A DNA stretch of 64,000 nucleotides from Candidatus Falkowbacteria bacterium (GTDB taxonomy: Bacteria; Patescibacteriota; Patescibacteriia; Patescibacteriales; VMTK01): positions 7,316 through 71,315 of the forward strand of contig VMTK01000018.1 of the NCBI GenBank assembly GCA_013791585.1, written 5' to 3'. A program made the translations under genes and the position numbers. Of the stretch, positions 6,307 through 21,916 are shown piece after piece. Each line of letters opens with the position of its first letter. Within the stretch, counting starts at the first letter, position 1. Below the pieces are notes generated by a model. That model made no database searches. It was not told where the DNA came from and was given only the letters and a program-made list of their open reading frames with translations.

Positions 6307-6522
6307 TTAATCGGTATTCAATATCTCATTCAAAATATCCTTGGCTAATTGTTTTTTTTCTTTTTCCGCCTGAAGATTATCAGTGATATTAAAATTCAAA
6401 ACCATGCCTTCGCGCGCTTGTTCCGGCAGATTGTTTTTTGGCCAGATTATAGAAATGCCCTCCTCGGTTTTAAAGACAGCTTTGTCATTTTCAAAGCGGT
6501 CAATTGTTATTTTAATGTTCAT
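6307..6522 (-). CDS. DUF3006-like small protein (71 aa from MNIKITIDRFE)
   Basis: IDRFENDKAVFKTEEG...LPEQAREGMVL pattern; internal Met chosen because the longer ORF overlaps the upstream gene. Confidence 0.5.
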   Translation of the reverse strand: MNIKITIDRFENDKAVFKTEEGISIIWPKNNLPEQAREGMVLNFNITDNLQAEKEKKQLAKDILNEILNTD

Positions 6523-8481: not shown

Positions 8482-8943
8482 TTACTTCTCTCTCACCTTG
8501 ATAGAAATCTGTTTTGACACTTTGGCTTTTGGCAGGACAATGGTTAAGACTCCGTTTTCCAGCGACGCTTCTATCTCCTGGGCTTTTATTTCAACCGGCA
8601 GGATTATTGACCGCGAGAAGCTGCCCCAATAGCATTCCCGGTATAAATAATCGTCAGCGTCAATATTTTCCTGCGTTTCTCTCTTGCCTCTTATGGTGAG
8701 CATGTCGTTGTTGATGGAGATGTCAATGTCTTCCGGCTTGACTCCGGCAATGGTTGAGGTGACTATCAGCTTGTCGGGAGTTTGGTAGACATCAATAGAC
8801 AGCTGGCCTTCTTCGTAATCATTTTCAAGCCATTCCTCGCCGGCGTTGCTTTCCGCTGAATCATCAATTTCTTCATCATTGCCTCCGCGGCCTGATAATT
8901 TTTTGTCGGAAAATCCCGCTAATTTTTTAAAAAAGTTGCCCAT
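8482..8943 (-). CDS. Hsp20/alpha-crystallin small heat-shock protein
   Basis: SIDVYQTPDKLIVTSTIAGVKPEDIDISINNDMLTIRGKRE ... ASLENGVLTIVLPK. Confidence 0.9.
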   Translation of the reverse strand: MGNFFKKLAGFSDKKLSGRGGNDEEIDDSAESNAGEEWLENDYEEGQLSIDVYQTPDKLIVTSTIAGVKPEDIDISINNDMLTIRGKRETQENIDADDYLYRECYWGSFSRSIILPVEIKAQEIEASLENGVLTIVLPKAKVSKQISIKVREK

Positions 8944-8993
8944 ATTGTTTTTAGTTTTTAAAATTAATTATGCTGTTATTATAAAATTTTTTA

Positions 8994-9225: not shown

Positions 9226-11565
9226 ATGATAAAAGAGCAGAGTTTGCCAAATATAAACAATTTTGAAAAGCAGCCGGTGGAGGCTGAAGGGTTTGATATG
9301 GAAGAAAAGAATCGTGATTACGAATTACCGCTGGAAAAAGAAAAAGAAAGTTCAATGGAAATAATGAAGCAAATGGCAGAATATTACAATAAACTAAAGG
9401 AGCTAAAAGGCAAAAGCGGCACGGAAAAAATTAATAAAATAAAAAATTTTATTGGCGGCTCTAAAAATCAACAAGCAAAAATAAACCGTGTAAAAGCATT
9501 TTTGTCGCTTGAGCAAGATCCGGATATGGGAGATAGGATTATGCATTTAGGCGAGCGATTAAAAGAAAAACCAAAATTAGCGGATAAAGTATTTGCTGAA
9601 TACGCGGCAAATGTGGATAGCGCTGAAAAAAATGCCGATGAATTGGCGAAACTGTATAATGAAATATTTTTTGAAAAACAAATTGATCGTAATAAAGCTA
9701 AAATGGCTATGCTGAAAAATGCTGGAAATTTGTTGTATTGGGCGAATGAAGGATTATTCAGCTGTGAAGAGCAAGAAAAGGAAGATATGATTAATGATTT
9801 AATTTTACAGCTTAGGAGACAGGAAAAAGCGCAAAAAGCAATTTTAAATGATTTAAAAAGTTTGGCTGCAACATTAAACAAGAAGTATAAAGAGATTAAT
9901 GATTTATGGCGAAAAAAAGATTGGGATGAAGAGATAGAACTTCAAGCGCATTTTTTGGAGCAAGATGGATTTTCAAAAAAAGAGATTGAATCTCACATAG
10001 AGGCTATGGATGAACCTATAGAAAATTATATAGCTAGCATAGAAGAAAAAGATGAAATAGATAAACAAAAAAAATATGACAGTGAAAGAATTAAAAAAAT
10101 TATTAATAAATTAGAAAATTATTATAGAGAAAATTTATATCTTGATTCAATTTTAAAGTTAAGTGATTTTGCTAAAATTTGGCAAGTTGATGAAAGTCAA
10201 GCCAAAAAGATATTGGAAGATAAACGATTATATCAAGAAGAAAGATATAAGCCGTTTGTTGGCAAGTTTAAAATTTTATTAAAATTTCAACAAAGTTTTG
10301 AACAAAAGATAGATCAATTTATTTATGGTGATGGAATGCCGGAGTTGCCAGAAGGAGTAAAACAGGAAGCGGCTGATTTAATTTTTCAAAAATACCAGGA
10401 AATTATTGATCAAACTAAAATTACTAAGATTCAGCTTAAAGCTTTATTCAAAAATAAGAAAAAAGTTAGTGATGAGGAGATAGATCAAGCCACGGAAATT
10501 ATTATTAAAAAAGCTGACAACTTATTACATAATTTTGCACAGAGATTTAGCCAAGATGAAAAAATTGACGAGAAAGAAATAATAAATGAATTAGAAAACT
10601 ATAAAGCCAATTTAATCTTAACGGCCAGTGTTTGGAAAGCAGCTGATAAAGAAGGCATTAATTTTGAAGACTTGGAAGACGTTAGCTCTGAGCGGAAAAC
10701 AGCAGGTGAAATTACGGAGCATGGCAAGACCATGAAACTGGTTAATGAAATATACGATAGAGAAACAAGTAAAAAACAGCCTTTTATTCCCGGAGGCAAT
10801 ATAAGAAGCGCGATTTCACAATACGCGGCAGAAGCCAGTCCGGAGGAAAGGGAAAGAGCCGGCGAGATTTTAGAGATGATAAATATTTACAGCAAACAAT
10901 ACGCCCATAAACCGAAACTGCGGGAAAAATTAATACAAGGATTTATAGATAAATTAAATACGGCCGGAGACAAAACCGCGATTTATTCTTTTAAGAAAGG
11001 CGGCCATGTTTTAGCCTTTGACAGGTTTGACGATTTGGGAAAAGGCAAAAAATATTTTGGGTCATTCAACGTCCTGCCCGCGCTTACTGATTCGGCTATT
11101 GGCTCGGCTTTGTTGCGGGCAAGCTTGGACAAAGAAGCGGAGCAGTCAGCAGAAATAGAGGCGGACTGCGAGCCTGAAAAATTAATTAGCTCATATTATA
11201 TTGAAAAAGCCGGGTTTGTGGTAAAAAAAATAATCCCAGATTATGGAGACGCGGGGATTACAGCATTTAATATTTCCAGAAAAAAAGAAAACAGCAAGTA
11301 TTATTACAGGGATTACAAGGCGGAAGATTTAAAGAAAGAGCATGAAAATAATTTTTCTAACAATAAATTTAACAAAGACGATCAATATATAATATTAAAA
11401 TTTGAATCAAACGACGGCAAGCCGATAGAAAACGAACAGCAGATTAAAGAAATACTGGATCAAGCGGGCGATTTGATTAATAGCAATGGCTATGTGATGA
11501 CGAGATATATTTTCAGCAAAGACAGGCGGGCAGTTTACTGCGCGTTAGAAAGAGAAGGAAGCTGA
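9226..11565 (+). CDS. large hypothetical protein, coiled-coil N-terminal region, GNAT-like C-terminal region
   Basis: C-terminal SAIGSALLRASL and YYIEKAGFVV resemble GNAT motif A and the YEK.GF motif; rest unassigned. Confidence 0.55.
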   Translation: MIKEQSLPNINNFEKQPVEAEGFDMEEKNRDYELPLEKEKESSMEIMKQMAEYYNKLKELKGKSGTEKINKIKNFIGGSKNQQAKINRVKAFLSLEQDPDMGDRIMHLGERLKEKPKLADKVFAEYAANVDSAEKNADELAKLYNEIFFEKQIDRNKAKMAMLKNAGNLLYWANEGLFSCEEQEKEDMINDLILQLRRQEKAQKAILNDLKSLAATLNKKYKEINDLWRKKDWDEEIELQAHFLEQDGFSKKEIESHIEAMDEPIENYIASIEEKDEIDKQKKYDSERIKKIINKLENYYRENLYLDSILKLSDFAKIWQVDESQAKKILEDKRLYQEERYKPFVGKFKILLKFQQSFEQKIDQFIYGDGMPELPEGVKQEAADLIFQKYQEIIDQTKITKIQLKALFKNKKKVSDEEIDQATEIIIKKADNLLHNFAQRFSQDEKIDEKEIINELENYKANLILTASVWKAADKEGINFEDLEDVSSERKTAGEITEHGKTMKLVNEIYDRETSKKQPFIPGGNIRSAISQYAAEASPEERERAGEILEMINIYSKQYAHKPKLREKLIQGFIDKLNTAGDKTAIYSFKKGGHVLAFDRFDDLGKGKKYFGSFNVLPALTDSAIGSALLRASLDKEAEQSAEIEADCEPEKLISSYYIEKAGFVVKKIIPDYGDAGITAFNISRKKENSKYYYRDYKAEDLKKEHENNFSNNKFNKDDQYIILKFESNDGKPIENEQQIKEILDQAGDLINSNGYVMTRYIFSKDRRAVYCALEREGS

Positions 11566-12320
11566 TCGTATGCCTTTGAGCGATTCCATGTAAACTTAAA
11601 TAATGATTTATTGAATTGATAAATATTTTTATCATTTATAATCATTGATATAATGCCTTTCGTTGAAAGGGAAATATAGGCTACTTTTCCATCGTAAATT
11701 TCAACAATAGAGTTAAAAGGATATTTTAAATGGTCAATAAAACGAAACTCGCTAACTTTCGGGTGATAGTCTTTGAGATAATTTCTAGCGAACAACGTAT
11801 CAATTACTATAATTTTTTTCATAATATTCAGTTGCTCTCTTTTTTTCGCGTGTTCTCTGTTCAGCTTCTCCATATATTTAACAACCGCTTCAACATCCGC
11901 GAAAGTGCAAATTGTTTCTTTGGCGGTCAGCATATCGTCCAAAACTATTTTTAAGCCGTTTATTCCCTCAAAATACCTTACTCCCGGCTTGCCGGAAACC
12001 AGATTAAAATCCGAAACAATGCCAGATAGATTCGCTTCCAGGGTATTTTTCGCTTTTTTAAATTCGCTTTCTTTCTGCTCGGCAAAATCACGCAGTTTTT
12101 CAGGATGGTCCGGGCTGAAATAAGCGACTTTATCCTTGGTTTTCTGCGATGCCAGCCCCTTTTTAACTAATGCTGTTAAGGCATTATAAACAACTCCGCG
12201 CTTAAGCGGGGTTTTTTTAATGATTTTCCCGGCCGAAGATTCGCCGTTCTTTAATAGATATTCATAGACAACGGCTTCATTGGCCGACAGCCCTATTTGA
12301 GTAAAAATGTCTTTATACAT
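11535..12320 (-). CDS. TrmB-family winged-HTH regulator-like protein
   Basis: IGLSANEAVVYEYLLKNGESSAGKIIKKTPLKRGVVYNALTALVKKGL; 3' end overlaps the convergent 779-aa gene by 31 nt. Confidence 0.7.
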   Translation of the reverse strand: MYKDIFTQIGLSANEAVVYEYLLKNGESSAGKIIKKTPLKRGVVYNALTALVKKGLASQKTKDKVAYFSPDHPEKLRDFAEQKESEFKKAKNTLEANLSGIVSDFNLVSGKPGVRYFEGINGLKIVLDDMLTAKETICTFADVEAVVKYMEKLNREHAKKREQLNIMKKIIVIDTLFARNYLKDYHPKVSEFRFIDHLKYPFNSIVEIYDGKVAYISLSTKGIISMIINDKNIYQFNKSLFKFTWNRSKAYDQLPSLSNAQ

Positions 12321-12520
12321 GTTGTTTGCTTCGCAAAGCCCGGCTGCAAATCGGGCGCATGCGAATTAATGTTTTTTGCTTCGCAAAGCCCGGCTACGAA
12401 TCGGGCACATGCGAATTAATGTTTTTTGCTTCGCAAAGCCCGGCTACGAATCGGGCACATGCGAATTAATGTTTTTTGCTTCGCAAAGCCCGGCTACGAA
12501 TCGGGCACATGCGAATTAGC
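12321..12520. repeat. 4 x 50-nt head-to-tail tandem repeat, each unit a nested hairpin
   Basis: Units start at 12321, 12371, 12421, 12471. TTCGCA AA GCCCGG CTACGAA TCGGGC ACA TGCGAA; unit 1 has loop CTGCAAA. The array fills the whole intergenic gap, from the NTase stop codon to the TrmB-like start codon. Confidence 0.95.
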
Positions 12521-13130
12521 TTATGTTTTCTAGAATATTTTTTCTTAATTTTGCCATTTGCTGATTATTTATTTTTAGCTCTTCAGCCTTGCTTGCCTTG
12601 GTTAAAATTTCTTCAATTTCATTATATAAATTAGTTATCTTATATTCTTGGCTTAATTTTTTGAAAAATTTCCAGTCAATATCAACAGCATCCAACATGC
12701 TGATTATGTCAATTTTATCTTTTTCTCCTTTGATTGAATTTTTACGGTCTTGATAGGCAAATAATTTCAGCAGTAAAAGAACCTCAATTTTAGGAACAAT
12801 AAAACCCTCTATGTTTTGCGCGCAGCCGCTTATCTTTTCCAATGGAAAGCCGATTTTTGAATAATGCGGCAGATAAATATCAATATCAAATTCGCCTAAT
12901 TTTATTTCATATTTTTTCAGCCGCTCATTTTTAATGACTTGGTATTTTTCTTTCAGCTTTCCAAGCTCATTATAATCAATAACTATGTCAATATCTTTTG
13001 ACTTCATTTTTTTTGTCCAAAGATAAACAGCCCAGCCGCCGATTAAAATAAAATTAAATTTTTCATTTAATTCCCGCAGGGCTTGATAGCTTTTATCTGT
13101 TATATTGTCATGCCAAAATTGTTTGGTCAT
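12516..13130 (-). CDS. nucleotidyltransferase-fold protein (AbiEii/MenT-like toxin candidate)
   Basis: FILIGGWAVYLW..KSKDIDIVI..FDIDIY (GG..., DxD pattern); 4-nt overlap with the upstream HTH gene. Confidence 0.55.
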   Translation of the reverse strand: MTKQFWHDNITDKSYQALRELNEKFNFILIGGWAVYLWTKKMKSKDIDIVIDYNELGKLKEKYQVIKNERLKKYEIKLGEFDIDIYLPHYSKIGFPLEKISGCAQNIEGFIVPKIEVLLLLKLFAYQDRKNSIKGEKDKIDIISMLDAVDIDWKFFKKLSQEYKITNLYNEIEEILTKASKAEELKINNQQMAKLRKNILENIS

Positions 13131-13708
13131 ATTTTAATTCTTTCTTTTAATTTTTTTAAAAATTCCTGCGCGCACCAGCTATCATCATTCCATAAGTCAA
13201 CGAAAATCTGCCCCAATGTTCCGCATTGGCCGTAATCCTTTAAATATTCATCCTGCTTTAAAACATAAAGATTTTCAGGGCCTTTTTTCGCTGGAAATCT
13301 TTTTTTGATTTCATCAATGTTGGAGCCGTAAATATAAACTTTGCCATAGTCAGACGGCGTTTCCTTGAATTTATATTTATAAGCGCTAAAACTCGCCCAG
13401 ATAATATCCGAGGGCATATTAGCTTCAATTTTTTCAATCGGCTCGCCAACAAAGGTTTTATAGATTATATCTTTACTAAGCTTCCTGTGCGTTCCCCATA
13501 AATAAAGCATTTTTTCAATATTTATCAGCTTAAAGCCGCTGCCGGATACTTGAATCGCTTTAATTTCACGGGGGATTTTTAAGGCGTTAAAGACAGTTGA
13601 TAAGGAAAAATTGAATTTTTTAGCCAGTTCCTGTTGTTGAAAGTTAAAATTGTTTTTTTCTATTGATTGGTAAAGCATTTCGCGCCAAATCACTTCTTTT
13701 TTGAACAT
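13127..13708 (-). CDS. HTH protein, AbiEi-like antitoxin candidate
   Basis: QQELAKKFNFSLSTVFNALK HTH; coupled to the NTase gene. Confidence 0.5.
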   Translation of the reverse strand: MFKKEVIWREMLYQSIEKNNFNFQQQELAKKFNFSLSTVFNALKIPREIKAIQVSGSGFKLINIEKMLYLWGTHRKLSKDIIYKTFVGEPIEKIEANMPSDIIWASFSAYKYKFKETPSDYGKVYIYGSNIDEIKKRFPAKKGPENLYVLKQDEYLKDYGQCGTLGQIFVDLWNDDSWCAQEFLKKLKERIKI

Positions 13709-13750
13709 ATAATTAAGTTGTTTCTAAAATTGATAATAAAATATAGCTTT

Positions 13751-13770
13751 ATTTCTATTATAGTAGAAAT
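13751..13770. promoter_or_regulatory. palindrome ATTTCTA-N6-TAGAAAT upstream of the HTH/NTase operon (possible operator)
   Basis: Read directly, about 45 nt upstream of the start at 13708. Confidence 0.3.
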
Positions 13771-14007
13771 AGAATAAATGTCAAGTTTATTTTAAAGTGT
13801 TCTATAAAAAATGTGAATCAAGGTATTGGCTGTGCAATTAATTATATCACATCTAAAATAATTGTCAAGAAAAAATGATAAATATAATTATTTGATTGTT
13901 TTATATTGTCATTGAAATATGATAAAAATAGCAAAAATATAAATAATCTATTTAAGCTAAAATTAGCTTAATATTATCGCATTTGACAGAAATAAAGTCA
14001 TATACTC

Positions 14008-14036
14008 TTGACAAGATATAAAGGGTATGCTATACT
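14008..14036 (+). promoter_or_regulatory. near-consensus sigma70 promoter TTGACA-17-TATACT
   Basis: Exact -35, 17-nt spacer, 5/6 -10; fires into the ORF-free region 14.04-15.26 kb. Confidence 0.55.
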
Positions 14037-14160
14037 GGTATATCAAGCTAAAAAGATAGCTTTGATAAAAACAGCACTTTAAATTAAAATAAAATACTTT
14101 TCAGTCTTCTGCTTAGCGGGTTAGAGTGGTAATAGCTATAAATAATTATGGCTTTATCCA

Positions 14161-14323
14161 TTAGACTTGCCGCGTAATTAGTTTCTACTGCAATTTCCAT
14201 ATTTTGGCCAAATTTCCCAAAAATTTTTTCAGCTTAGCTCAGGCTAAACCTCAAAAATTGTTTGAAAAATTTGACTCAAAATCTGAAAATTTCGTTACAA
14301 AACTAATTACGCGGCAAGTCTAA
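14161..14323. mobile_element. MITE-like 163-bp element with 24-bp perfect terminal inverted repeats
   Basis: TTAGACTTGCCGCGTAATTAGTTT (14161-14184) and its exact reverse complement (14300-14323); arms continue imperfectly; flanked by TCCA at 14157-14160 and 14324-14327. Confidence 0.45.
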
Positions 14324-14410
14324 TCCAAAAGGCATAAAATTGAAAAATGCTAGCGAGTGGCATTTCTTTCAAGCCAAATGCTTGTCGGCTTGAAAGAAGT
14401 CCAGTCTCTG

Positions 14411-14497
14411 GGATTTGAAACGCGGCGCTACAAATGCCGCCCATCCGAATAAACGGATTTGAAACGCGGCGCTACAAATGCCGCTCGTGCGAATAGA
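14411..14497 (+). repeat. two 44-nt-spaced units GGATTTGAAAC GCGGCG|CTACAAA|TGCCGC + (CCAT CCGAATA / TCGT GCGAATA)
   Basis: Hairpin-family copies 6 and 7 (stems 14422-14440 and 14466-14484). Confidence 0.85.
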
Positions 14498-14552
14498 ACA
14501 GGGATTAAATAGCACATTAAATTAAAATATTATTGTTCTTTATAAATAAAAC

Positions 14553-14727
14553 GCAATCAAGGAAACTAATGAAGAAGATTATTTATAACTATGATTTATG
14601 GCCAAGGCCTAAGTTAAGGTTATAAAGATCAATAAAATAAGTGCATAAAACAGCAAGGGATATCAAATAATAACTAAGCTCTTTAATAATTCATCTATTG
14701 CTCTTCTTCATCATTTTCTTTGATTGC
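14553..14727. repeat. 26-nt imperfect inverted repeats enclosing about 120 nt
   Basis: GCAATCAAGGAAACTAATGAAGAAGA vs TCTTCTTCATCATTTTCTTTGATTGC, 23/26 complementary. Confidence 0.7.
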
Positions 14728-15140
14728 AAAATCAGCTAAAAGCGATTGCTGTAAATTTTAGAATAAAAGCAGATTAAGCCATGCTTGTAATCTGCTTCCT
14801 AAGATATAATAGCCGCTTTAGTTCGTCCCGCTCCAATATAAATTTGGGCGGGAGATGGAATTAATTTTTGAATTATTATTTTAAATAATTATTCAAAAAA
14901 AGCGTAATCTAAATTGCACGAACCAATTTTGATAACGCGCCGCTTGAGTAAATTGTGATTCAGTTGTCTTTAAAAGATGATGAAATCCATTTTAAAGCGA
15001 TTCTGTCAACTGATGTGTTTGCCTCTCGAAAATCCCGAGGGAAGGACATTGGCTGGACGCAAAGTCTTGAACCCGCTTTGTGTCTAGAAATGTCTTAGCT
15101 AATAATTTAGAGCAATCCCGTTATTTATGACGGAGTAAGC

Positions 15141-15261
15141 GTTCTTTAAAACAAAATTTAAACTGAGGCAAAATGGAAATTAAATTTTTTAGTTTTTATT
15201 TTGTCTCAGTTTAGAGGCATAAACATTGAGCCCAGCCCGAGGGGAAATTCGGGCAAGGAGG
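15141..15261 (+). promoter_or_regulatory. 121-nt structured leader, copy 1 (ends in the SD AAGGAGG)
   Basis: 118/121 identical to 17024-17144; 15-bp stem 15160-15174/15198-15212; CCCGA..TCGGG hairpin 15236-15253 next to the SD. Confidence 0.8.
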
Positions 15262-15265
15262 AAAA

Positions 15266-16219
15266 ATGAATTTTTTTCAAATTGATCCGCGACCTGTCGG
15301 CCGTGGAGCGAATGAAAAGTTTTTTTCCGAGAACAGCAATGTCCTCGGAATTGAAGTAACTATTCCTGAGTGGGCATCTCGATGTTCATTTGGGAATATA
15401 GATCATCACGGCTCACAAGACACGGCGGAAACTCCGTCGGCTTGTGAACAAGCCATAAAGTATGGGACGCGATTTTTCGGTCGCCCCTGTTGCGGCGGTG
15501 GCTGGGATACTTATTCGTGTCCCAAATGTGACGGGGCTGATTGTCCTCCGGTTAAACCGGAGGCAATAGTCACTGTTCGCCCTGATGCGGATTCTGTGAC
15601 GGCAATGGCAGTTGTTTTTTCTTGCCTTTTAGGGGGTGGGCGAGAGATTGATCGCGACCTTGTAAAAATGGTCGGAACATTCGACCGACTTGGACATCAT
15701 GCCGAGCAACGCGATGACCGAGTTGTCGCCATTGCCCGAGTCTCCGCAGATTTCAAGCGTTCGCTCACAGAGCGAGTCGCTTGGGTGCAGGGATTGCTCG
15801 CTGGAAACAGTGAGCAGATGGCTGAGGTGGCTGAACTTGTTGCGGAACGCGATAAAGAATTTGCTGAGGCCAAAGTGGCGAGTGAGATTAATCTTGTCGC
15901 TAACGGTCGGATTGCTACGGTTGTTTCGTCGCATCGTTTTGCGACAAACTTGGGTTATGAGTATGCGACAGTTGTCGTAGCTCAAAACCCTGAAATGCCC
16001 GTGAATTTTCGTGACCCGTTCGCTGGTACATACAATAAATTTACGGTGTGTCGGTATAATTCGCACACACCGTGTAATTTACCGGCGGCACTTGCTGAGC
16101 TCCAAGTATTGGAGCCCGGCTGGGGCGGTCGAGGGGATATCTTCGGATCTCCTCAAGGAGTAAACTCTAAACTAACCCTCAACCAAGTGGTTGAGGTGGT
16201 TCAGAAACACCTCAAATAA
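15266..16219 (+). CDS. hypothetical protein with DHH/DHHA1-like motifs in non-canonical order and a Cys cluster
   Basis: GNIDHHG (aa 43-49), VRPDADS (aa 104-110), GWGGRGDIFGSPQG near the C-terminus; RPCCGGGWDTYSCPKCDGADC; strong SD; higher G+C than its surroundings. Confidence 0.7.
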   Translation: MNFFQIDPRPVGRGANEKFFSENSNVLGIEVTIPEWASRCSFGNIDHHGSQDTAETPSACEQAIKYGTRFFGRPCCGGGWDTYSCPKCDGADCPPVKPEAIVTVRPDADSVTAMAVVFSCLLGGGREIDRDLVKMVGTFDRLGHHAEQRDDRVVAIARVSADFKRSLTERVAWVQGLLAGNSEQMAEVAELVAERDKEFAEAKVASEINLVANGRIATVVSSHRFATNLGYEYATVVVAQNPEMPVNFRDPFAGTYNKFTVCRYNSHTPCNLPAALAELQVLEPGWGGRGDIFGSPQGVNSKLTLNQVVEVVQKHLK

Positions 16220-16286
16220 TATTCATCTCTCCCAAGTAAACGCGCGCTTGGGAGAGTAAAAAAATAGCGCTAAAAAAGGTTCACTT

Positions 16287-16325
16287 CGGGTAGGGATAAG
16301 TAGTTTTATTCCTACCCGCTTTTTC
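16287..16325 (+). terminator. rho-independent terminator
   Basis: CGGGTAGG..CCTACCCG followed by CTTTTT. Confidence 0.6.
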
Positions 16326-16494
16326 CAAGATTATCATTTTTATATTTAATAGTTAAATAATATTTTCATACTGCGGTTTTTGCCACAGGGTAATTTACTT
16401 AATTTAGCAAAAAATATAAATGGTGATTTTAGAGGAAGTAATTCTTTAGATTGTTCTTTATAATTAAATAATACATATTAAAAATTTTCATTGA

Positions 16495-16606
16495 TTTCTC
16501 CCTTTCTTTATAAATTCATTTACCTTTTAAGCTGATAAATATTTTTTAGCTTAAAAGGTAAATGAATAAAAATGCTACATTTTTGGCAAAAAAAGAAAGG
16601 GGGAAA
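16495..16606 (+). promoter_or_regulatory. SD-sequestering leader structure upstream of the 109-aa ORF
   Basis: 16495-16509 (TTTCTCCCTTTCTTT) pairs with 16592-16606 (AAAGAAAGGGGGAAA, includes the SD; one G-U); perfect 20-bp inner hairpin 16514-16533/16548-16567. Confidence 0.5.
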
Positions 16607-16608
16607 AA

Positions 16609-16938
16609 ATGAAAAAAGACAGAAAATTTGAAAGCCTCTTGCGTGAGATTCTTGGAGACCCAAATTTTTGGGTTCCTGGAGTTGGAAATGGAGGAATTGA
16701 GGGCGTCCTTGATGCCCTCAATTCTTTAAACGATGCGGAGATAATCCGCATCATTAGGGGAGGAGACAAAGCTAAATCCACCGCTTCGGTGGATTTTGAG
16801 AAAGAGCTCTCTTTAATAGAAGAGAGCATAAAGCGTCAGACAGCAGGAAGTGATCCTGCTTATGACACCCTCTATTACGCGTATGCCAACGCGTATGGAG
16901 AAGTTTGTGCCCTCATAGAAAACCTGCTAAGGGGTTAA
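16609..16938 (+). CDS. hypothetical protein (109 aa)
   Basis: ORF with a GGGGG SD and its own terminator; no recognisable motif. Confidence 0.6.
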   Translation: MKKDRKFESLLREILGDPNFWVPGVGNGGIEGVLDALNSLNDAEIIRIIRGGDKAKSTASVDFEKELSLIEESIKRQTAGSDPAYDTLYYAYANAYGEVCALIENLLRG

Positions 16939-16948
16939 TTGGTTTAAC

Positions 16949-16984
16949 GGGGAGTTTTTCTTGGTAAAAACTCCCCATCTTTCC
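16949..16984 (+). terminator. hairpin terminator GGGGAGTTTTT..AAAAACTCCCC
   Basis: 11-bp stem, 6-nt loop, T-rich tail. Confidence 0.5.
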
Positions 16985-17023
16985 AAATTCACCAATATGA
17001 TTGGCGGATTTAGAAAGGTGATT

Positions 17024-17144
17024 GTTCTTTAAAACAAAATTTAAACTGAGGCAAAACGGAAATTAAATTTTTTAGTTTTTATTTTGTCTCAATTTAGAGA
17101 CATAAACATTGAGCCCAGCCCGAGGGGAAATTCGGGCAAGGAGG
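17024..17144 (+). promoter_or_regulatory. 121-nt structured leader, copy 2
   Basis: 3 substitutions relative to 15141-15261; ends in AAGGAGG 6 nt before the ATG at 17151. Confidence 0.8.
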
Positions 17145-17150
17145 TGAAAA

Positions 17151-17510
17151 ATGAAGAAGAAGTATTTAGAAATTTTTTTTGATAAATGTACTTTTTCTGC
17201 AGAGGATATTGTTTCTTTAGCAGAAGAGGTAAGAAAGAATTTTACTGAGATAAGAATCGTCCCATCCTCAGTATATTCTTATCAAGGAGGAGAGCACGGT
17301 AGCAATCCTCCTAAAACTCGACCAGATGATTGGTCGGGAGTTATTCCTCGTATAAGTGACGGGGATACCCGTGACGGAGATTATCTTCTGTGCCTCGGCA
17401 CTGAGGATAGATACGGATATGTAGACGAGCGAGGGCTTGTCTACAAAAAGGCTTCCTCAATTGAGGAAGCAAAAAAATTTTTAAAGGGGGTGAATAATGC
17501 AAAAACATAA
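17151..17510 (+). CDS. hypothetical protein (119 aa)
   Basis: Strong SD; no recognisable motif; 14-nt overlap with the next ORF. Confidence 0.6.
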   Translation: MKKKYLEIFFDKCTFSAEDIVSLAEEVRKNFTEIRIVPSSVYSYQGGEHGSNPPKTRPDDWSGVIPRISDGDTRDGDYLLCLGTEDRYGYVDERGLVYKKASSIEEAKKFLKGVNNAKT

Positions 17511-18255
17511 AATTTACCCCTCAGGTCTAGAGCAGTATGAACATGCTCTAGGCCTGTACCAGCCTGTGTCGTATTGGCTGGCGCCAGAAGAGCAGACCTG
17601 CCGAGTGGTCTGCAATTTGCGAAGCCGGACTCATGAAGTATGGCTGAGTGAGCCGGCCTATAGGAGTCCGGAGCTTTTGCTCCCAGACATTGTCCATAAA
17701 CTTTGCCATTGCGCTCTGGCGGAACGAGTGGACACGGCTTTTTCCACGATTTGGTTCACTGAAAAATGGAATCAAATCAGCCGGAAAGAGCCGGGACGGT
17801 TCAGTCAGTCCGCCCGGATGCTCTACTTGGCATGGTGCCATGTGGACATTTGGGTCAATGATCTCCGGCACAAACATTGGCCGGAGTTAATCGCTCAGGA
17901 GCACTCCACCTTTGCTCAAGGAGTTGTTATTTTACTCCAAAGGCATGAGTGGGGCATGCTCTCCAGATCTGAGACGCTTCTCGGCTTGGCTCAGCACCAG
18001 GCCGAGCGGGAGCGGCACGGCCTATCTAAATCAGCTGACCTTTTTGCCGTTTTGTCAGCCCATGGCATAGAGGTTGAAAAAAAGATTAAAGGGCTGGCAG
18101 AATTTTTTAAATTTTTGCCGCGCTTGCGTTTTAAGCCGCGCAAGGATTTGAAAATTTTGGAAAGTTCAGTTGTAGAAGTTGCGCGCCGGCTGGAATTTCC
18201 AATTAGTCCCAAACTCGTGTTTAAAAACGGACTATGGGTTTGGGATTTGGGTTAA
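17497..18255 (+). CDS. hypothetical protein (252 aa) with an HExxH-like HKLCH motif
   Basis: IVHKLCHCALAE (Lys where a metalloprotease Glu would sit); SD AGGGGG upstream; translationally coupled. Confidence 0.6.
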   Translation: MQKHKIYPSGLEQYEHALGLYQPVSYWLAPEEQTCRVVCNLRSRTHEVWLSEPAYRSPELLLPDIVHKLCHCALAERVDTAFSTIWFTEKWNQISRKEPGRFSQSARMLYLAWCHVDIWVNDLRHKHWPELIAQEHSTFAQGVVILLQRHEWGMLSRSETLLGLAQHQAERERHGLSKSADLFAVLSAHGIEVEKKIKGLAEFFKFLPRLRFKPRKDLKILESSVVEVARRLEFPISPKLVFKNGLWVWDLG

Positions 18256-18328
18256 AGATTACTTCGTCCACCCGAGGTTTTGGGTTTAACAGCAAGCAAG
18301 GAGCGGATAAGCTTGCAAGGGTTTTAAA

Positions 18329-18358
18329 AAGGAGACATAATGGATTGTCTCCTTTTTT
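18329..18358 (+). terminator. rho-independent terminator AAGGAGACA..TGTCTCCTT + T-tract
   Basis: Read directly, after the last cassette gene. Confidence 0.7.
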
Positions 18359-18381
18359 ATGATTTTTAAGTTTATTTTTAT

Positions 18382-18415
18382 GAAAATTAAGCAAGGGATG
18401 GCGGTTAATAAAAAA
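18382..18415. repeat. 34-nt direct repeat, right copy
   Basis: GAAAATTAAGCAAGGGATGGCGGTTAATAAAAAA; 33/34 identical to 8994-9027. Confidence 0.8.
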
Positions 18416-18502
18416 GGGCTAAACCGCTCGCAGACGATTTAGCCCCTTTACCGTTTCAAATATCTGATCTGAAATCTGAAATCCGACATCAGAAATCCGA
18501 AA

Positions 18503-18613
18503 TGGTGGGCGACACAAGATTTGAACTTGCGACCTCCACGATGTCAACGTGGCGCTCTAATTTACTCCGGTACGCCCCGCTGGGCTACCGGAGCGAGCTG
18601 AGCTGCTTGTTGT
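18503..18613 (-). pseudogene. tRNA-Val(GAC)-like gene with a 37-nt hairpin inserted in the D-loop and no matching 5' acceptor strand
   Basis: 3' half is canonical (CCACG TTGACAT CGTGG AGGTC GCAAG TTCAAAT CTTGT GTCGCCC A CCA). D arm is GCTC AG[CTCGCTCCGGTAGCCCAGCGGGGCGTACCGGAGTAAA]TTA GAGC. The upstream 7 nt do not pair with GTCGCCC. Confidence 0.4.
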
Positions 18614-18618
18614 TTTTG

Positions 18619-18692
18619 TGGACGACACTGGACTCGAACCAGTGACCTCTTCGATGTCAACGAAGCGCTCTAACCAGCTGAGCTAGCCGTCC
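18619..18692 (-). tRNA. tRNA-Val (anticodon GAC)
   Basis: Hand-folded 74-nt cloverleaf: GGACGGC TA GCTC AGCTGGTTA GAGC G CTTCG TTGACAT CGAAG AGGTC ACTGG TTCGAGT CCAGT GTCGTCC A. Confidence 0.85.
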
Positions 18693-18774
18693 GTATCGGA
18701 TGTCAGATTTCGGATATCTGAAATCAGATTGTTAATTTATCCGAAATCCGAGATCTGAAATCCGATATCCGAAA

Positions 18775-18922
18775 TGGTGGGCATAGATGGATTTGAAGCT
18801 CCTCGGCGCTATCCTCGGTGCCGAAACTGGGAAACGGGGCGACATCCACGTTATAAGCGTGGCGCTCTAATTTACTCCGGTACGCCCCGCTGGGCTACCG
18901 GAGCGAGCTGAGCTAGCCGCCC
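18775..18922 (-). pseudogene. aberrant tRNA-like gene (UAU anticodon loop) with the same D-loop insertion, no foldable T arm, plus a stray tRNA 3' fragment
   Basis: GGGCGGC TA GCTC AG[37-nt insert]TTA GAGC G CCACG CTTATAA CGTGG AT GTCGCCC. GTCGCCC pairs with the 5' acceptor directly after the anticodon arm. The gene then ends ..TTCAAATCCATCTATGCCCACCA. Confidence 0.35.
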
Positions 18923-18939
18923 ATTTTTGAAATCTGAAA

Positions 18940-19015
18940 TGGTGCGCCCAGATGGACTTGAACCATCGACCCCCGGCTTATAAGGCCGGTGCTCTAACCA
19001 CTGAGCTATGGGCGC
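18940..19015 (-). tRNA. tRNA-Ile (anticodon UAU as encoded)
   Basis: Hand-folded 76-nt cloverleaf: GCGCCCA TA GCTC AGTGGTTA GAGC A CCGGC CTTATAA GCCGG GGGTC GATGG TTCAAGT CCATC TGGGCGC A CCA. Confidence 0.8.
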
Positions 19016-20618: not shown

Positions 20619-21197
20619 TTGTTAACCTTTATGTCTAATATCACTAAAAAAATATTAAAATTAGCGATTTCAAAAAAATCAGTTTTTACCGCTGATGAGT
20701 TGGCATTGGCATGGAAAATTACAAACAAGAATGTTTTGAGAGTGATGATCAATAGAAGCACTAAAAGCAATATTCTAAAAAAAATCAGGAGAGGAATTTA
20801 TTCGTTGAATGAAAAAGATGTTAATGTTTTTGAGTTAGCGTGCAAGCTTAAAAAAAGATCGTATATTAGTTTTGAAACAGTCCTAAGTAAAGCCGGAATA
20901 ATATTTCAATGGCAGGATAAAATATTTTTAGCCAGCAATAGGACATCGGAGATTAAAAATAAATATGGAAAATTTGTTTATAGAAAAATACCCGATAAAG
21001 CTCTGCATAGCAACGACGGGATAATTAGCAAAGGGAATTATTTTATTGCCACGGAAGAAAGGGCTTTGTGCGATAAAGTCTATAAAGACGGCATAAGTTA
21101 TTTTGACGATTTATCAGGAATAGACAGAAAGAAAATATTGCCAATAGCTAAATTATATAACAAAAGATTAGAGAAAGATATTAGAAAAATAATATGA
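20619..21197 (+). CDS. AbiEi-like type IV TA antitoxin
   Basis: N-terminal wHTH, 4-nt overlap with the AbiEii-like gene. Confidence 0.55.
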   Translation: MLTFMSNITKKILKLAISKKSVFTADELALAWKITNKNVLRVMINRSTKSNILKKIRRGIYSLNEKDVNVFELACKLKKRSYISFETVLSKAGIIFQWQDKIFLASNRTSEIKNKYGKFVYRKIPDKALHSNDGIISKGNYFIATEERALCDKVYKDGISYFDDLSGIDRKKILPIAKLYNKRLEKDIRKII

Positions 21198-21916
21198 AAA
21201 CAGATAAAGAAAAACATAAAAAAATAATGCTGAATATATTGGCTGATATTTCCAAAGATCCTGAATTGTCTGTTAATCTTGGCTTTAAAGGCGGAACTTG
21301 TTGTTATTTTATTTATGGCTTGGATAGATTTTCCGTAGATTTGGATTTTGATTTGCTGAATATGGAGGCAAAAGATTTAGTTATGAAAAAAATGAATGAG
21401 TTATTAAAAAAATATGGAACAGTTAAAAAGGAGGGTGGAGAATCGCGCATGAAATTAAAATATTCAGATGATAGCAGCGCCTTAAAGGTTGATATATCTT
21501 CAAGAGATGAATTAAATTATTTAAATAGCTATGAAATTAAAGATATTGTTTCAAGTGTTCCTTTAAATATATTAAAAAAGGAAGATATTTTTGCCAACAA
21601 GCTTGTGGCTGTTAAAGATAGATTTGAGAATAAATTAGCAAATAAAATAATAGCAAATAGGGATATTTATGATATTAATTTTTTCTTTAATAAAAATTGG
21701 GGGATTAATTATGAAATAATCGCGCTCAGAAGAAAAAAAGACGCGAAATCATACCTTAAAGAATTAATAGAATTTATAGAAAAAAAAGTTGATAATAAAA
21801 GAATTCTAGACGGAATCGGGGCTTTGGTTAGCGATGAAAAAAGAGAATGGGTAAAAAATGAATTAAAAAATGAGGTTATCAAGCAGTTAGCTATTCAAAT
21901 TAAGTCAATGGAGTAA
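21194..21916 (+). CDS. AbiEii/AbiGii-family nucleotidyltransferase toxin
   Basis: FKGGTCCYFIYGLDRFSVDLDFD matches the GGTAL..R.S.DIDF signature. Confidence 0.75.
   Translation: MKTDKEKHKKIMLNILADISKDPELSVNLGFKGGTCCYFIYGLDRFSVDLDFDLLNMEAKDLVMKKMNELLKKYGTVKKEGGESRMKLKYSDDSSALKVDISSRDELNYLNSYEIKDIVSSVPLNILKKEDIFANKLVAVKDRFENKLANKIIANRDIYDINFFFNKNWGINYEIIALRRKKDAKSYLKELIEFIEKKVDNKRILDGIGALVSDEKREWVKNELKNEVIKQLAIQIKSME

Follow-up and report, generated by a model that had tools for sequence, protein, structure and literature searches.

Several described systems resemble parts of the locus analysed here. Correia, RUP and ERIC are small non-autonomous elements bounded by terminal inverted repeats (TIRs), of which Correia elements have TA flanks and are transcribed together with the genes beside them. 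The large RNAs GOLLD and ROOL tend to occur in mobile regions by tRNA genes. Our subject is a hairpin-rich noncoding stretch, positions 14008-15265 of a 64-kb window (the whole stretch of DNA that was analysed) from the low-GC genome of a Candidatus Falkowbacteria bacterium, which encodes a type IV secretion system (T4SS) pilin, VanW, LytR and aminoacyl-tRNA synthetases. Relatives of the DHH-like gene downstream of this stretch are often preceded by hammerhead ribozymes; multiple hammerheads flanking single genes or short blocks have been described in prophage-like regions, where their proposed role is to divide long transcripts into mRNAs of gene length (Perreault et al. 2011, PMC3088659).

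The original prediction, made from the sequence, had proposed that the 1.2 kb is either a large noncoding RNA (ncRNA) or a very long 5' untranslated region (UTR). Our analysis leaves the second half of this proposal plausible, in the form of a long mosaic 5' UTR, and lends no support to a single large ncRNA. We consider it probable that the 1.2 kb is the untranslated front end of an accessory insertion of ~4.6 kb, a mosaic that includes a miniature inverted-repeat transposable element (MITE) and ends in a structured leader. It would thus be mostly ordinary intergenic patchwork at the edge of a small island and not a giant structured RNA: known kinds of things (a genomic island, a MITE and the structured leader of ribozyme-associated genes) combined in a lineage from which few of them have been described. 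What the locus adds is a documented MITE family of Patescibacteria, a pair of inserted and empty sites by a tRNA cluster, and a hammerhead-less variant of a ribozyme-associated cassette leader. Labels of the form L004 denote the relatives' loci, contigs and strains that were compared with the window.

A 4.6-kb insertion beside a tRNA cluster

The stretch lies within a 1557-nt intergenic gap. On one side of the gap, on the minus strand, are a divergent 193-aa helix-turn-helix (HTH) gene and its DUF6036/AbiEii-like nucleotidyltransferase partner, which together form a toxin-antitoxin-like pair; on the other side, four plus-strand genes (317, 109, 119 and 252 aa) follow one another, and ~250 nt separate the last of them from a tRNA cluster. 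Three contigs (L069, L070 and L071) carry homologues of the 193-aa gene with 76-92% identity, and each is syntenic with the window (VanW, DUF3006, HSP20, DUF6036 and the 193-aa gene, then tRNAs, DHH and ValRS). On each of these contigs, no more than ~50 nt separate the homologue of position 13785 from the hairpin/tRNA of ~18405-18503. The stretch that these three syntenic relatives lack, ~13794-18378, is accordingly a strain-specific insertion of ~4.6 kb. It contains the 1.2 kb as well as the promoter and all four genes, and 14008-15265 is its noncoding 5' quarter. The insertion is delimited as follows.

13783-13793, no strand: left junction of the insertion, with one copy of an 11-bp direct repeat, AAGTTTATTTT; the alignment of L069 and L070 runs to 13785 and resumes at ~18405
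13794-18367, plus strand: insertion body (promoter, 1.2-kb leader, four genes and terminator), absent from L069, L070 and L071
13841-13868, minus strand: perfect consensus promoter TTGACA-16-TATAAT with TG, inside the left end of the insertion and directed outward to the host 193-aa/DUF6036 genes
14008-14036, plus strand: extended -10 promoter of near-consensus sequence, TTGACA-17-TATACT, where the island transcript probably starts
18326-18357, plus strand: terminator-like hairpin GGAGACA..TGTCTCC followed by a T-run, read from the sequence at the 3' end of the island
18368-18378, no strand: right copy of AAGTTTATTTT at the insertion junction

Deleting the interval together with one 11-bp copy restores a spacer as long as the empty site of the relatives. 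The composition of the island also differs from its surroundings, with a GC content of 46-59% in its coding sequences (CDSs) versus ~30-37% in the neighbourhood. With its presence/absence polymorphism and defined junctions, the segment is a genomic island. As in tRNA-adjacent genomic islands, it is missing in syntenic relatives, has a short direct repeat and a distinct gene composition, and lies ~125 nt from a tRNA 3' end; unlike them, it has no integrase among its four proteins and no duplicated tRNA 3' segment at its far end, and measures only 4.6 kb. The native promoter of the 193-aa gene, at 13757-13784, is conserved in the relatives, and the outward promoter at 13841-13868 is additional to it.

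Where would transcription of the island begin? The consensus promoter of the original prediction stands at 14008-14036 and has an upstream TG. Sites that score 11/12 or better against the sigma-70 consensus number just 10 in the 64 kb; 13757-14036 contains a cluster of three, and most of the others are found roughly 30-220 nt upstream of genes. The 14008 promoter is the only good plus-strand promoter in the 1557-nt intergenic region and is 85% identical over 34 nt to the promoter heading the homologous cassette array in L022 (6196-6228). Most likely, it would drive one transcript of ~4.3 kb through the 1.2 kb and into the four genes. One potential alternative is that the promoter makes a short small RNA (sRNA) or regulatory transcript that stops early, within the first few hundred nucleotides and perhaps at the hairpin of the MITE, and that the genes use a nearer, unrecognised promoter. 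The 183-nt MITE hairpin (-62 to -85 kcal/mol) could indeed block or process transcripts, and the usual 30-220 nt spacing of the near-consensus promoters fits such an arrangement. However, no promoter-like site at 9/12 or better occurs between 14290 and 15266, and no intrinsic-terminator-like hairpin and U-run was found on the plus strand from 14008 to the ATG at 15266, nor anywhere before 16287, so that we regard a short transcript as improbable.

Folding and composition of the 1.2 kb

We compared folding energies with those of shuffled sequences and report the difference as z (dinucleotide shuffles unless stated otherwise). The minimum free energy of 14040-15265 (1226 nt) was -391 kcal/mol versus -266 ± 8 kcal/mol for the shuffles, corresponding to a z of -16.2 on the plus strand and -9.9 on the minus strand. 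When the TIR element was removed, z was -10.0 (+) and -8.7 (-), and single hairpins within the 1.2 kb gave values between -3.8 and -6.3. The abundance of hairpins is therefore real and nonrandom. Reading the sequence together with a repeat listing recovered every hairpin and repeat that had been predicted within 14008-15265, with one of them mis-placed by 11 nt. The predicted lack of reading frames of at least 60 aa was also borne out: the longest open reading frames (ORFs) inside the region have 48 aa on the minus strand and 47 aa on the plus strand (14955-15098).

The folding signal is not uniform. In the central 676 nt (14325-15000), folding was equal on both strands (z -9.6 on plus and -9.5 on minus), and we therefore read these hairpins as DNA palindromes and not as strand-specific RNA. 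In contrast, 14998-15140 gave a z of -5.67 on the plus strand, with 0 of 200 shuffles as good, versus -0.53 on the minus strand, and the leader at 15139-15265 was likewise more stable on the plus strand. With this strand specificity, 15000-15265 behaves as a genuine RNA fold would in the orientation of the downstream genes. In our reading, the AT-rich first ~900 nt would be passenger DNA gathered between promoter and genes (the MITE and possibly nested terminal-repeat fragments), and 15000-15265 would be a strand-specific RNA leader of ~270 nt, of which the last 121 nt would represent a cassette-leader module repeated before a second gene.

Could the 1.2 kb nevertheless be one folded unit, a structured ncRNA of the GOLLD/ROOL/OLE kind expressed from 14008? 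The z of -16 against shuffles, the strong promoter directly upstream and the location in a mobile island adjoining tRNA genes are all compatible with this idea, and, like GOLLD, ROOL, OLE and HEARO, the stretch is of kilobase scale, has many hairpins and occupies a mobile region next to tRNAs. Unlike those RNAs, it has no covariance-model match, is not conserved beyond a single species, is a mosaic containing a MITE that exists independently elsewhere, and shows no strand bias in half of its length, the central 676 nt. It is also AT-rich with perfect palindromes, and no terminator marks a 3' end. The search of Rfam 15 for large-RNA models that the original prediction had proposed returned no family: at the gathering score, only two tRNAs were reached in the 64 kb, and at E ≤ 10 the sub-threshold matches in 13700-18600 were miRNA/snoRNA noise on hairpins. 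Comparisons by blastn in its "distant" setting with phage and plasmid collections gave no match to the 1.2 kb, and none of 48 related loci has a DNA homologue of it upstream of the homologous genes, save for the MITE and the promoter. A metagenome scan with the single 317-aa sequence found nothing, and an alignment-based rescan found 42 loci, 0 of which had DNA similarity to the 1.2 kb; the 46 loci collected for relatives of this protein likewise have no DNA in common with it. The relatives thus hold no homologous region in which structure could be conserved, and the 1.2 kb is not conserved outside one species. Within the species, the gap is 99.4-100% identical in 20 contigs from independent assemblies, an identity so high that these copies carry almost no comparative information on structure. 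Taken together, these data make a single large ncRNA highly improbable.

The passenger portion of the long 5' UTR that we favour contains the following elements, in order.

14042-14067, plus strand: imperfect palindrome/hairpin ATCAAGCT/AGCTTTGAT at about +1 to +25 of the promoter (z -3.8)
14069-14091 and 14507-14529, plus strand: 23-nt direct repeat, copies 91% identical, whose core CACTTTAAAWTAAA recurs inverted at the left terminus of the insertion (13786-13799)
14160-14324, no strand: MITE of ~165 bp with perfect 25-nt TIRs, a 157-bp core at 14164-14320 and TA on both sides; no coding gene
14364-14398, plus strand: perfect 12-bp hairpin TTCTTTCAAGCC/GGCTTGAAAGAA, extendable to 14358-14404 (z -6.3 on plus, -5.0 on minus)
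14411-14495, plus strand: tandem repeat of a 44-nt unit (two copies), with a GCGGCG..GCCGC hairpin in each copy; fold not significant alone (z -0.7 to -1.6), and no other copies found
14533-14727, plus strand: orphan cassette-junction-like module consisting of a box, TTGTTCTTTATAA, at 14533-14545 and an inverted repeat at 14553-14727 (z -5.8/-4.9)
14767-14797, plus strand: 10-bp hairpin AAGCAGATTA/TAATCTGCTT (z -4.5 on plus, -5.3 on minus)
14826-14853, plus strand: GC-rich hairpin TCCCGC..GCGGGA
14865-14899, plus strand: AT palindrome with 17-nt arms

The first hairpin, which had been predicted as the first element downstream of the promoter, is possibly an operator or a 5' stem-loop. The 23-nt repeat may mark nested insertions or terminal-repeat fragments, although in such AT-rich sequence a chance match is also possible.

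The predicted TIR element is present with perfect 25-nt arms at 14160-14184 and 14300-14324. Its fold is strong on both strands (z -10 on plus, -13 on minus), and the only ORF inside it has 39 aa and a TTG start. Scanning 185,579 species genomes for the terminal 19-mer of the element, which has GACTTGCCGCGTAATTAG ends, matched two metagenome-assembled genomes of Patescibacteria: L026 has a full-length homologue of ~190 bp with the same ends, ~70% interior identity and TA flanks, upstream of an unrelated gene, and L025 has a solo end. In both full copies, TA, which is short and palindromic, directly flanks GAC/TTTGCC...GGCAAGTC. The breaks that five short assemblies show inside the element are what a repeat would produce, and they hint at more copies. 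Being a short noncoding element bounded by TIRs with homologous copies at unrelated sites, it is a MITE. The likeness to Correia, RUP and ERIC extends to size (~160 bp at 14160-14324), perfect 25-nt TIRs, TA flanks, lack of an ORF, an intergenic or 5' UTR location and a copy at an unrelated locus; the differences are that its sequence is unrelated to the named families, that its host belongs to the Patescibacteria, that it is represented by two full copies and a solo end, and that no parent transposase was identified. Sixteen viral-contig matches to the pattern of its ends showed no extended similarity and were set aside as chance.

For two of the hairpins right of the MITE, the original prediction needed adjustment. 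The TTCTTTCAAGCC/GGCTTGAAAGAA hairpin is present, with a stem of 12 bp instead of 10, and the AAGCAGATTA..TAATCTGCTT hairpin is real but lies at 14767-14797, not at 14778-14808. In strain L004, substitutions at 14363, 14366 and 14395 in the first of these hairpins keep plus-strand pairing in 3 of 3 cases via G-U or C-G, which gives weak support (p ~ 0.125 for the choice of strand) to the idea that it is also read as plus-strand RNA. Overall, the window and L004 differ at 26 positions over the 9.9 kb compared; nine of these are packed into 66 nt right of the MITE (14330-14395) and ten into 8877-8993, a clustering that points to patches of local recombination or to further copies of the segments concerned. 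The two predicted CTACAAA hairpins proved to be the units of the 44-nt tandem repeat (14411-14451 and 14455-14495, 93% identical). An origin of these units from a tRNA fragment (att) was rejected, as they have no tRNA-like score, and a CRISPR-like array was rejected with just two units and spacers of ~3 nt.

The predicted inverted repeat with 26-nt arms is found at 14553-14578 and 14702-14727 (88% complementary). Its arms hold an SD-ATG-AAG-AAG sequence (SD, Shine-Dalgarno) that resembles the start of the 119-aa gene, and no gene follows. The module at 14533-14727 looks like a cassette junction that lost its gene and may be such a relic. More generally, the 1.2 kb might consist of decayed gene cassettes, that is, of former small genes that were destroyed and left their junction hairpins and boxes behind. 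The spacing from 14533 to 15139 is about that of one small cassette, and L022 has two ORFs of ~110 aa between the promoter and the DHH-like gene. On the other hand, tblastx of the region against the remainder of the window and 369 kb from the loci of relatives revealed no protein-level remnant, and GC here is 24-36% versus 44-59% in intact cassette CDSs. We consider it unlikely that decay of this kind accounts for the region. An integron reading of the boxes and hairpins was rejected: the recurring box, TTGTTCTTTAWAA, does not fit the GTTRRRY of the attC core (RYYYAAC...GTTRRRY), and no IntI integrase is present, which sets these junctions apart from integron cassettes.

The symmetry of the 14325-15000 palindromes between strands could also point to a DNA-level site, such as a recombination site, an origin of transfer (oriT), a replication origin or a protein-binding array, with the palindromes acting as cruciforms or binding sites. 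Repeated 26-nt motifs occur around the divergent promoters, a TraG-like coupling protein is encoded near the homologous genes in L024, and a TrmB-family regulator neighbours both the window genes and those of L024. Yet the island has no relaxase, replication initiator or recombinase, its elements are heterogeneous and not iterated like origin iterons, and relatives have no homologous sites; such a function for the region is, in our view, very unlikely.

The 3' leader and the ribozymes of relatives

The part of the putative 5' UTR next to the first gene differs from the passenger DNA and is made of two elements.

15000-15136, plus strand: multi-stem RNA element of 137 nt closed by UUCUGUCA/UGACGGAG, structured on the plus strand only, in the position where relatives have a hammerhead
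15139-15265, plus strand: leader module of 121 nt, with a second copy at 17022-17150; the box GTTCTTTAAAA comes first, then a hairpin of 26-28 bp (15159-15213), a GC hairpin (15238-15257) and finally an SD

The original prediction had noted GC-richer stems followed by a duplicated leader. These correspond to the hairpin at 14826-14853 and the multi-stem element, and to 15141-15261, whose second copy at 17024-17144 is 97.5% identical. The layout of box, long hairpin, short hairpin and SD recurs in the leaders of the 109-aa and 119-aa genes, and outside the 1.2 kb, the orthologous 109-aa leader in L021 keeps the long hairpin despite many substitutions. Logan contigs that start 34 nt upstream of the ATG were rejected as evidence of transcript ends; both leader copies have an exact stretch of 44 nt in common, which at k = 31 explains these starts as an assembly artefact.

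In many relatives, type III hammerheads occur 150-250 nt upstream of the DHH-like gene on the same strand, and several of these relatives have more of them between neighbouring genes. They score 37.7 bits against an Rfam gathering score of 48.5, so that standard annotation would miss them. Nevertheless, their core is perfect and their stems covary, with 95.5% of cells paired and changes on both sides in 13 of 16 pairs. A model built from 11 of the relatives' examples recovered two held-out hammerheads (39-42 bits) and located 15 in all among the relatives, at these positions.

L021: 28-98
L022: 7822-7879
L027: 884-941 and 2096-2153
L028: 110-195, 767-852 and 2043-2112
L031: 1269-1338
L033: 3933-3990
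L034: 4100-4157, 5813-5870 and 12400-12457 (minus strand)
L037: 1700-1765
L056: 898-955
L063: 8946-9003

The typical order is hammerhead, GTTCTTT, a near-perfect hairpin of 20-36 bp, a shorter hairpin and an SD, and the leader layout after the hammerhead was seen in L021, L022, L027, L028, L031, L033, L034, L037 and L056. In the window, the core CUGANGA...GAAA had no regular-expression match in 13700-18600, where Rfam also gave no hammerhead at E ≤ 10, and the family model reached at best 12.8 bits (E 0.2) anywhere in the 64 kb. A by-eye likeness of 15003-15020 (UCUGUC..CUGAUGUG) to the 5' part of the L021 hammerhead was rejected as a relic, being speculation only: it is without stem I, A9 and GAAA, and scores nothing with either model. 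Thus, the locus resembles the hammerhead-punctuated operons described earlier (PMC3088659) in the covarying type III hammerheads of its relatives, often several per locus, and in its own 121-nt leader layout; it differs in having no hammerhead in the window and, in the equivalent place, a 137-nt multi-stem element without the catalytic core.

These comparisons suggest how the leader might function. In the relatives, the hammerhead would cut the polycistronic RNA into single-gene mRNAs ahead of the leader module, a ribozyme that is absent here. The long hairpins 5' of each gene may be RNase III targets or protective 5' stems and so contribute to mRNA processing or stabilisation, and the GC or outer stems beside the SD may modulate translation or ribosome access.

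Separately, a conserved leader motif, ARAATAGCGARG...(variable hairpin)...GTTATTCCTCTTYG, whose ends seem to be complementary, precedes the cassette arrays of L022 (motif at 6372-6442), L024 (7681-7743) and L029 (5723-5785). The window does not contain this motif, a possible cis-regulatory RNA of an undescribed kind.

Several points weigh against a long 5' UTR at the front of a mobile insertion. The distance from promoter to ATG is ~300-600 nt in relatives, far shorter than the 1.2 kb here, and a weak, unrecognised promoter nearer 15266 could exist. No integrase, transposase or recombinase was found in the four island proteins by Pfam, PHROG or PADLOC; the 11-bp repeat is AT-rich and could in principle be fortuitous; and deletion in the lineages of the relatives is a formal alternative to insertion. 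For the MITE, two full copies and one solo end are all that was seen across genomes, and a single scan of species genomes found neither a cognate transposase nor a full-length insertion sequence (IS) with its ends. Finally, the likenesses to an orphan cassette junction and to a replaced hammerhead are resemblances and not homology statistics, and tblastx left no pseudogene trace.

Island genes and their surroundings

The genes that the leader precedes are the following.

15266-16219, plus strand: 317-aa DHH/DHHA1-fold phosphoesterase-like gene, the first of the island; no Pfam match
16609-18255, plus strand: three further island genes of 109, 119 and 252 aa; no family match

We found 129 homologues of the 317-aa protein, nearly all of them in metagenomes of Patescibacteria, with an invariant D-H-H and GWGGRG; the viral contig collection contained no relative of it. 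Its AlphaFold model (pLDDT 89.7) matches DHH/DHHA1 phosphoesterases of the NrnA/Rv2837c, GdpP and RecJ-like kinds, and on the strength of this predicted fold, the protein may be a nanoRNase or a cyclic-nucleotide phosphodiesterase.

These genes are themselves unusually structured. Scanning the whole window in 200-nt tiles gave a background z of about -1, and all 15 tiles of 15001-18000 had z values of -4.0 to -8.6 on the plus strand, with the next tile (18001-18200) not reaching -3.5. On the sense strand, with 40 shuffles per tile, the four island genes had mean z values of -3.5 to -7.0 versus +0.3 to -1.6 for seven host control genes (five housekeeping genes and the 193-aa and 779-aa neighbours). 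With synonymous-codon shuffles, z was -7.1 to -10.6 for the island genes and -0.8 to -3.4 for housekeeping genes. Cassette blocks of relatives were likewise structured (L021, 323-1800; L022, 6000-9000; L024, 7600-11400), as were most homologues at ≥45% protein identity, with a gene GC 10-30 points above that of the host flanks; distant homologues with host-like GC were not structured. Because the CDSs are hyper-structured, hairpin density is a property of the whole island and does not mark a discrete ncRNA gene. The structure within CDSs may be due to selection for stable RNA or to a step of cassette biology that takes place at the RNA level.

Taken further, these observations would make the 1.2 kb the leader of a previously undescribed mobile cassette array, GC-rich (46-59%, and up to ~70% in relatives), with a sense strand selected for RNA structure and punctuated by hammerheads in relatives. 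We regard this as quite unlikely. If it were so, the 15000-15136 element and the long hairpins would replace the ribozyme, as a new processing element or self-cleaver, and the life cycle of the cassettes might include an RNA stage, such as processed stable RNAs or circular RNAs. Within the more modest reading of the 1.2 kb as a long mosaic 5' UTR, the stronger lead lies outside it, in the hyper-structured, GC-rich cassette genes, often flanked by hammerheads, of many Patescibacteria. Should this combination reflect RNA-centred processing or mobility, it would be new for the mobile genes of reduced bacteria.

The surroundings of the island are also variable. A 779-aa protein and a TrmB-family regulator (9226-12320) are without counterpart in the syntenic L069 and L071, and are homologous to a 668-aa/TrmB pair directly adjoining the DHH-like gene in L024; by this homology, two related accessory modules flank the same toxin-antitoxin-like pair in the window. 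Between the TrmB gene and the DUF6036 gene lies a tandem repeat of ~four units with a 50-bp period (12319-12518, units 96-97% identical). The tRNA hotspot is flanked by two AbiEii/DUF6036-type nucleotidyltransferase pairs of a toxin-antitoxin or abortive-infection-like kind (12516-13708 and 20619-21916), and in L071 the same tRNAs enclose another insertion; the site therefore seems to be a recurrent integration spot.

In the tRNA cluster itself (18500-19015, minus strand), only tRNA-Val(GAC) at 18618-18692 and tRNA-Ile(UAU) at 18940-19015 were called. A weak second tRNA-Val-like copy (18506-18577, minus strand, 28.5 bits) and a tRNA apparently interrupted by insertions (18775-18925, minus strand) both contain the same hairpin insert of ~35 nt, TTTACTCCGGTACGCCCCGCTGGGCTACCGGAGCG, at a place occupied by an intact D-arm in L069. 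The tRNAs of this cluster are separated by simple tctgaaatccga repeats.

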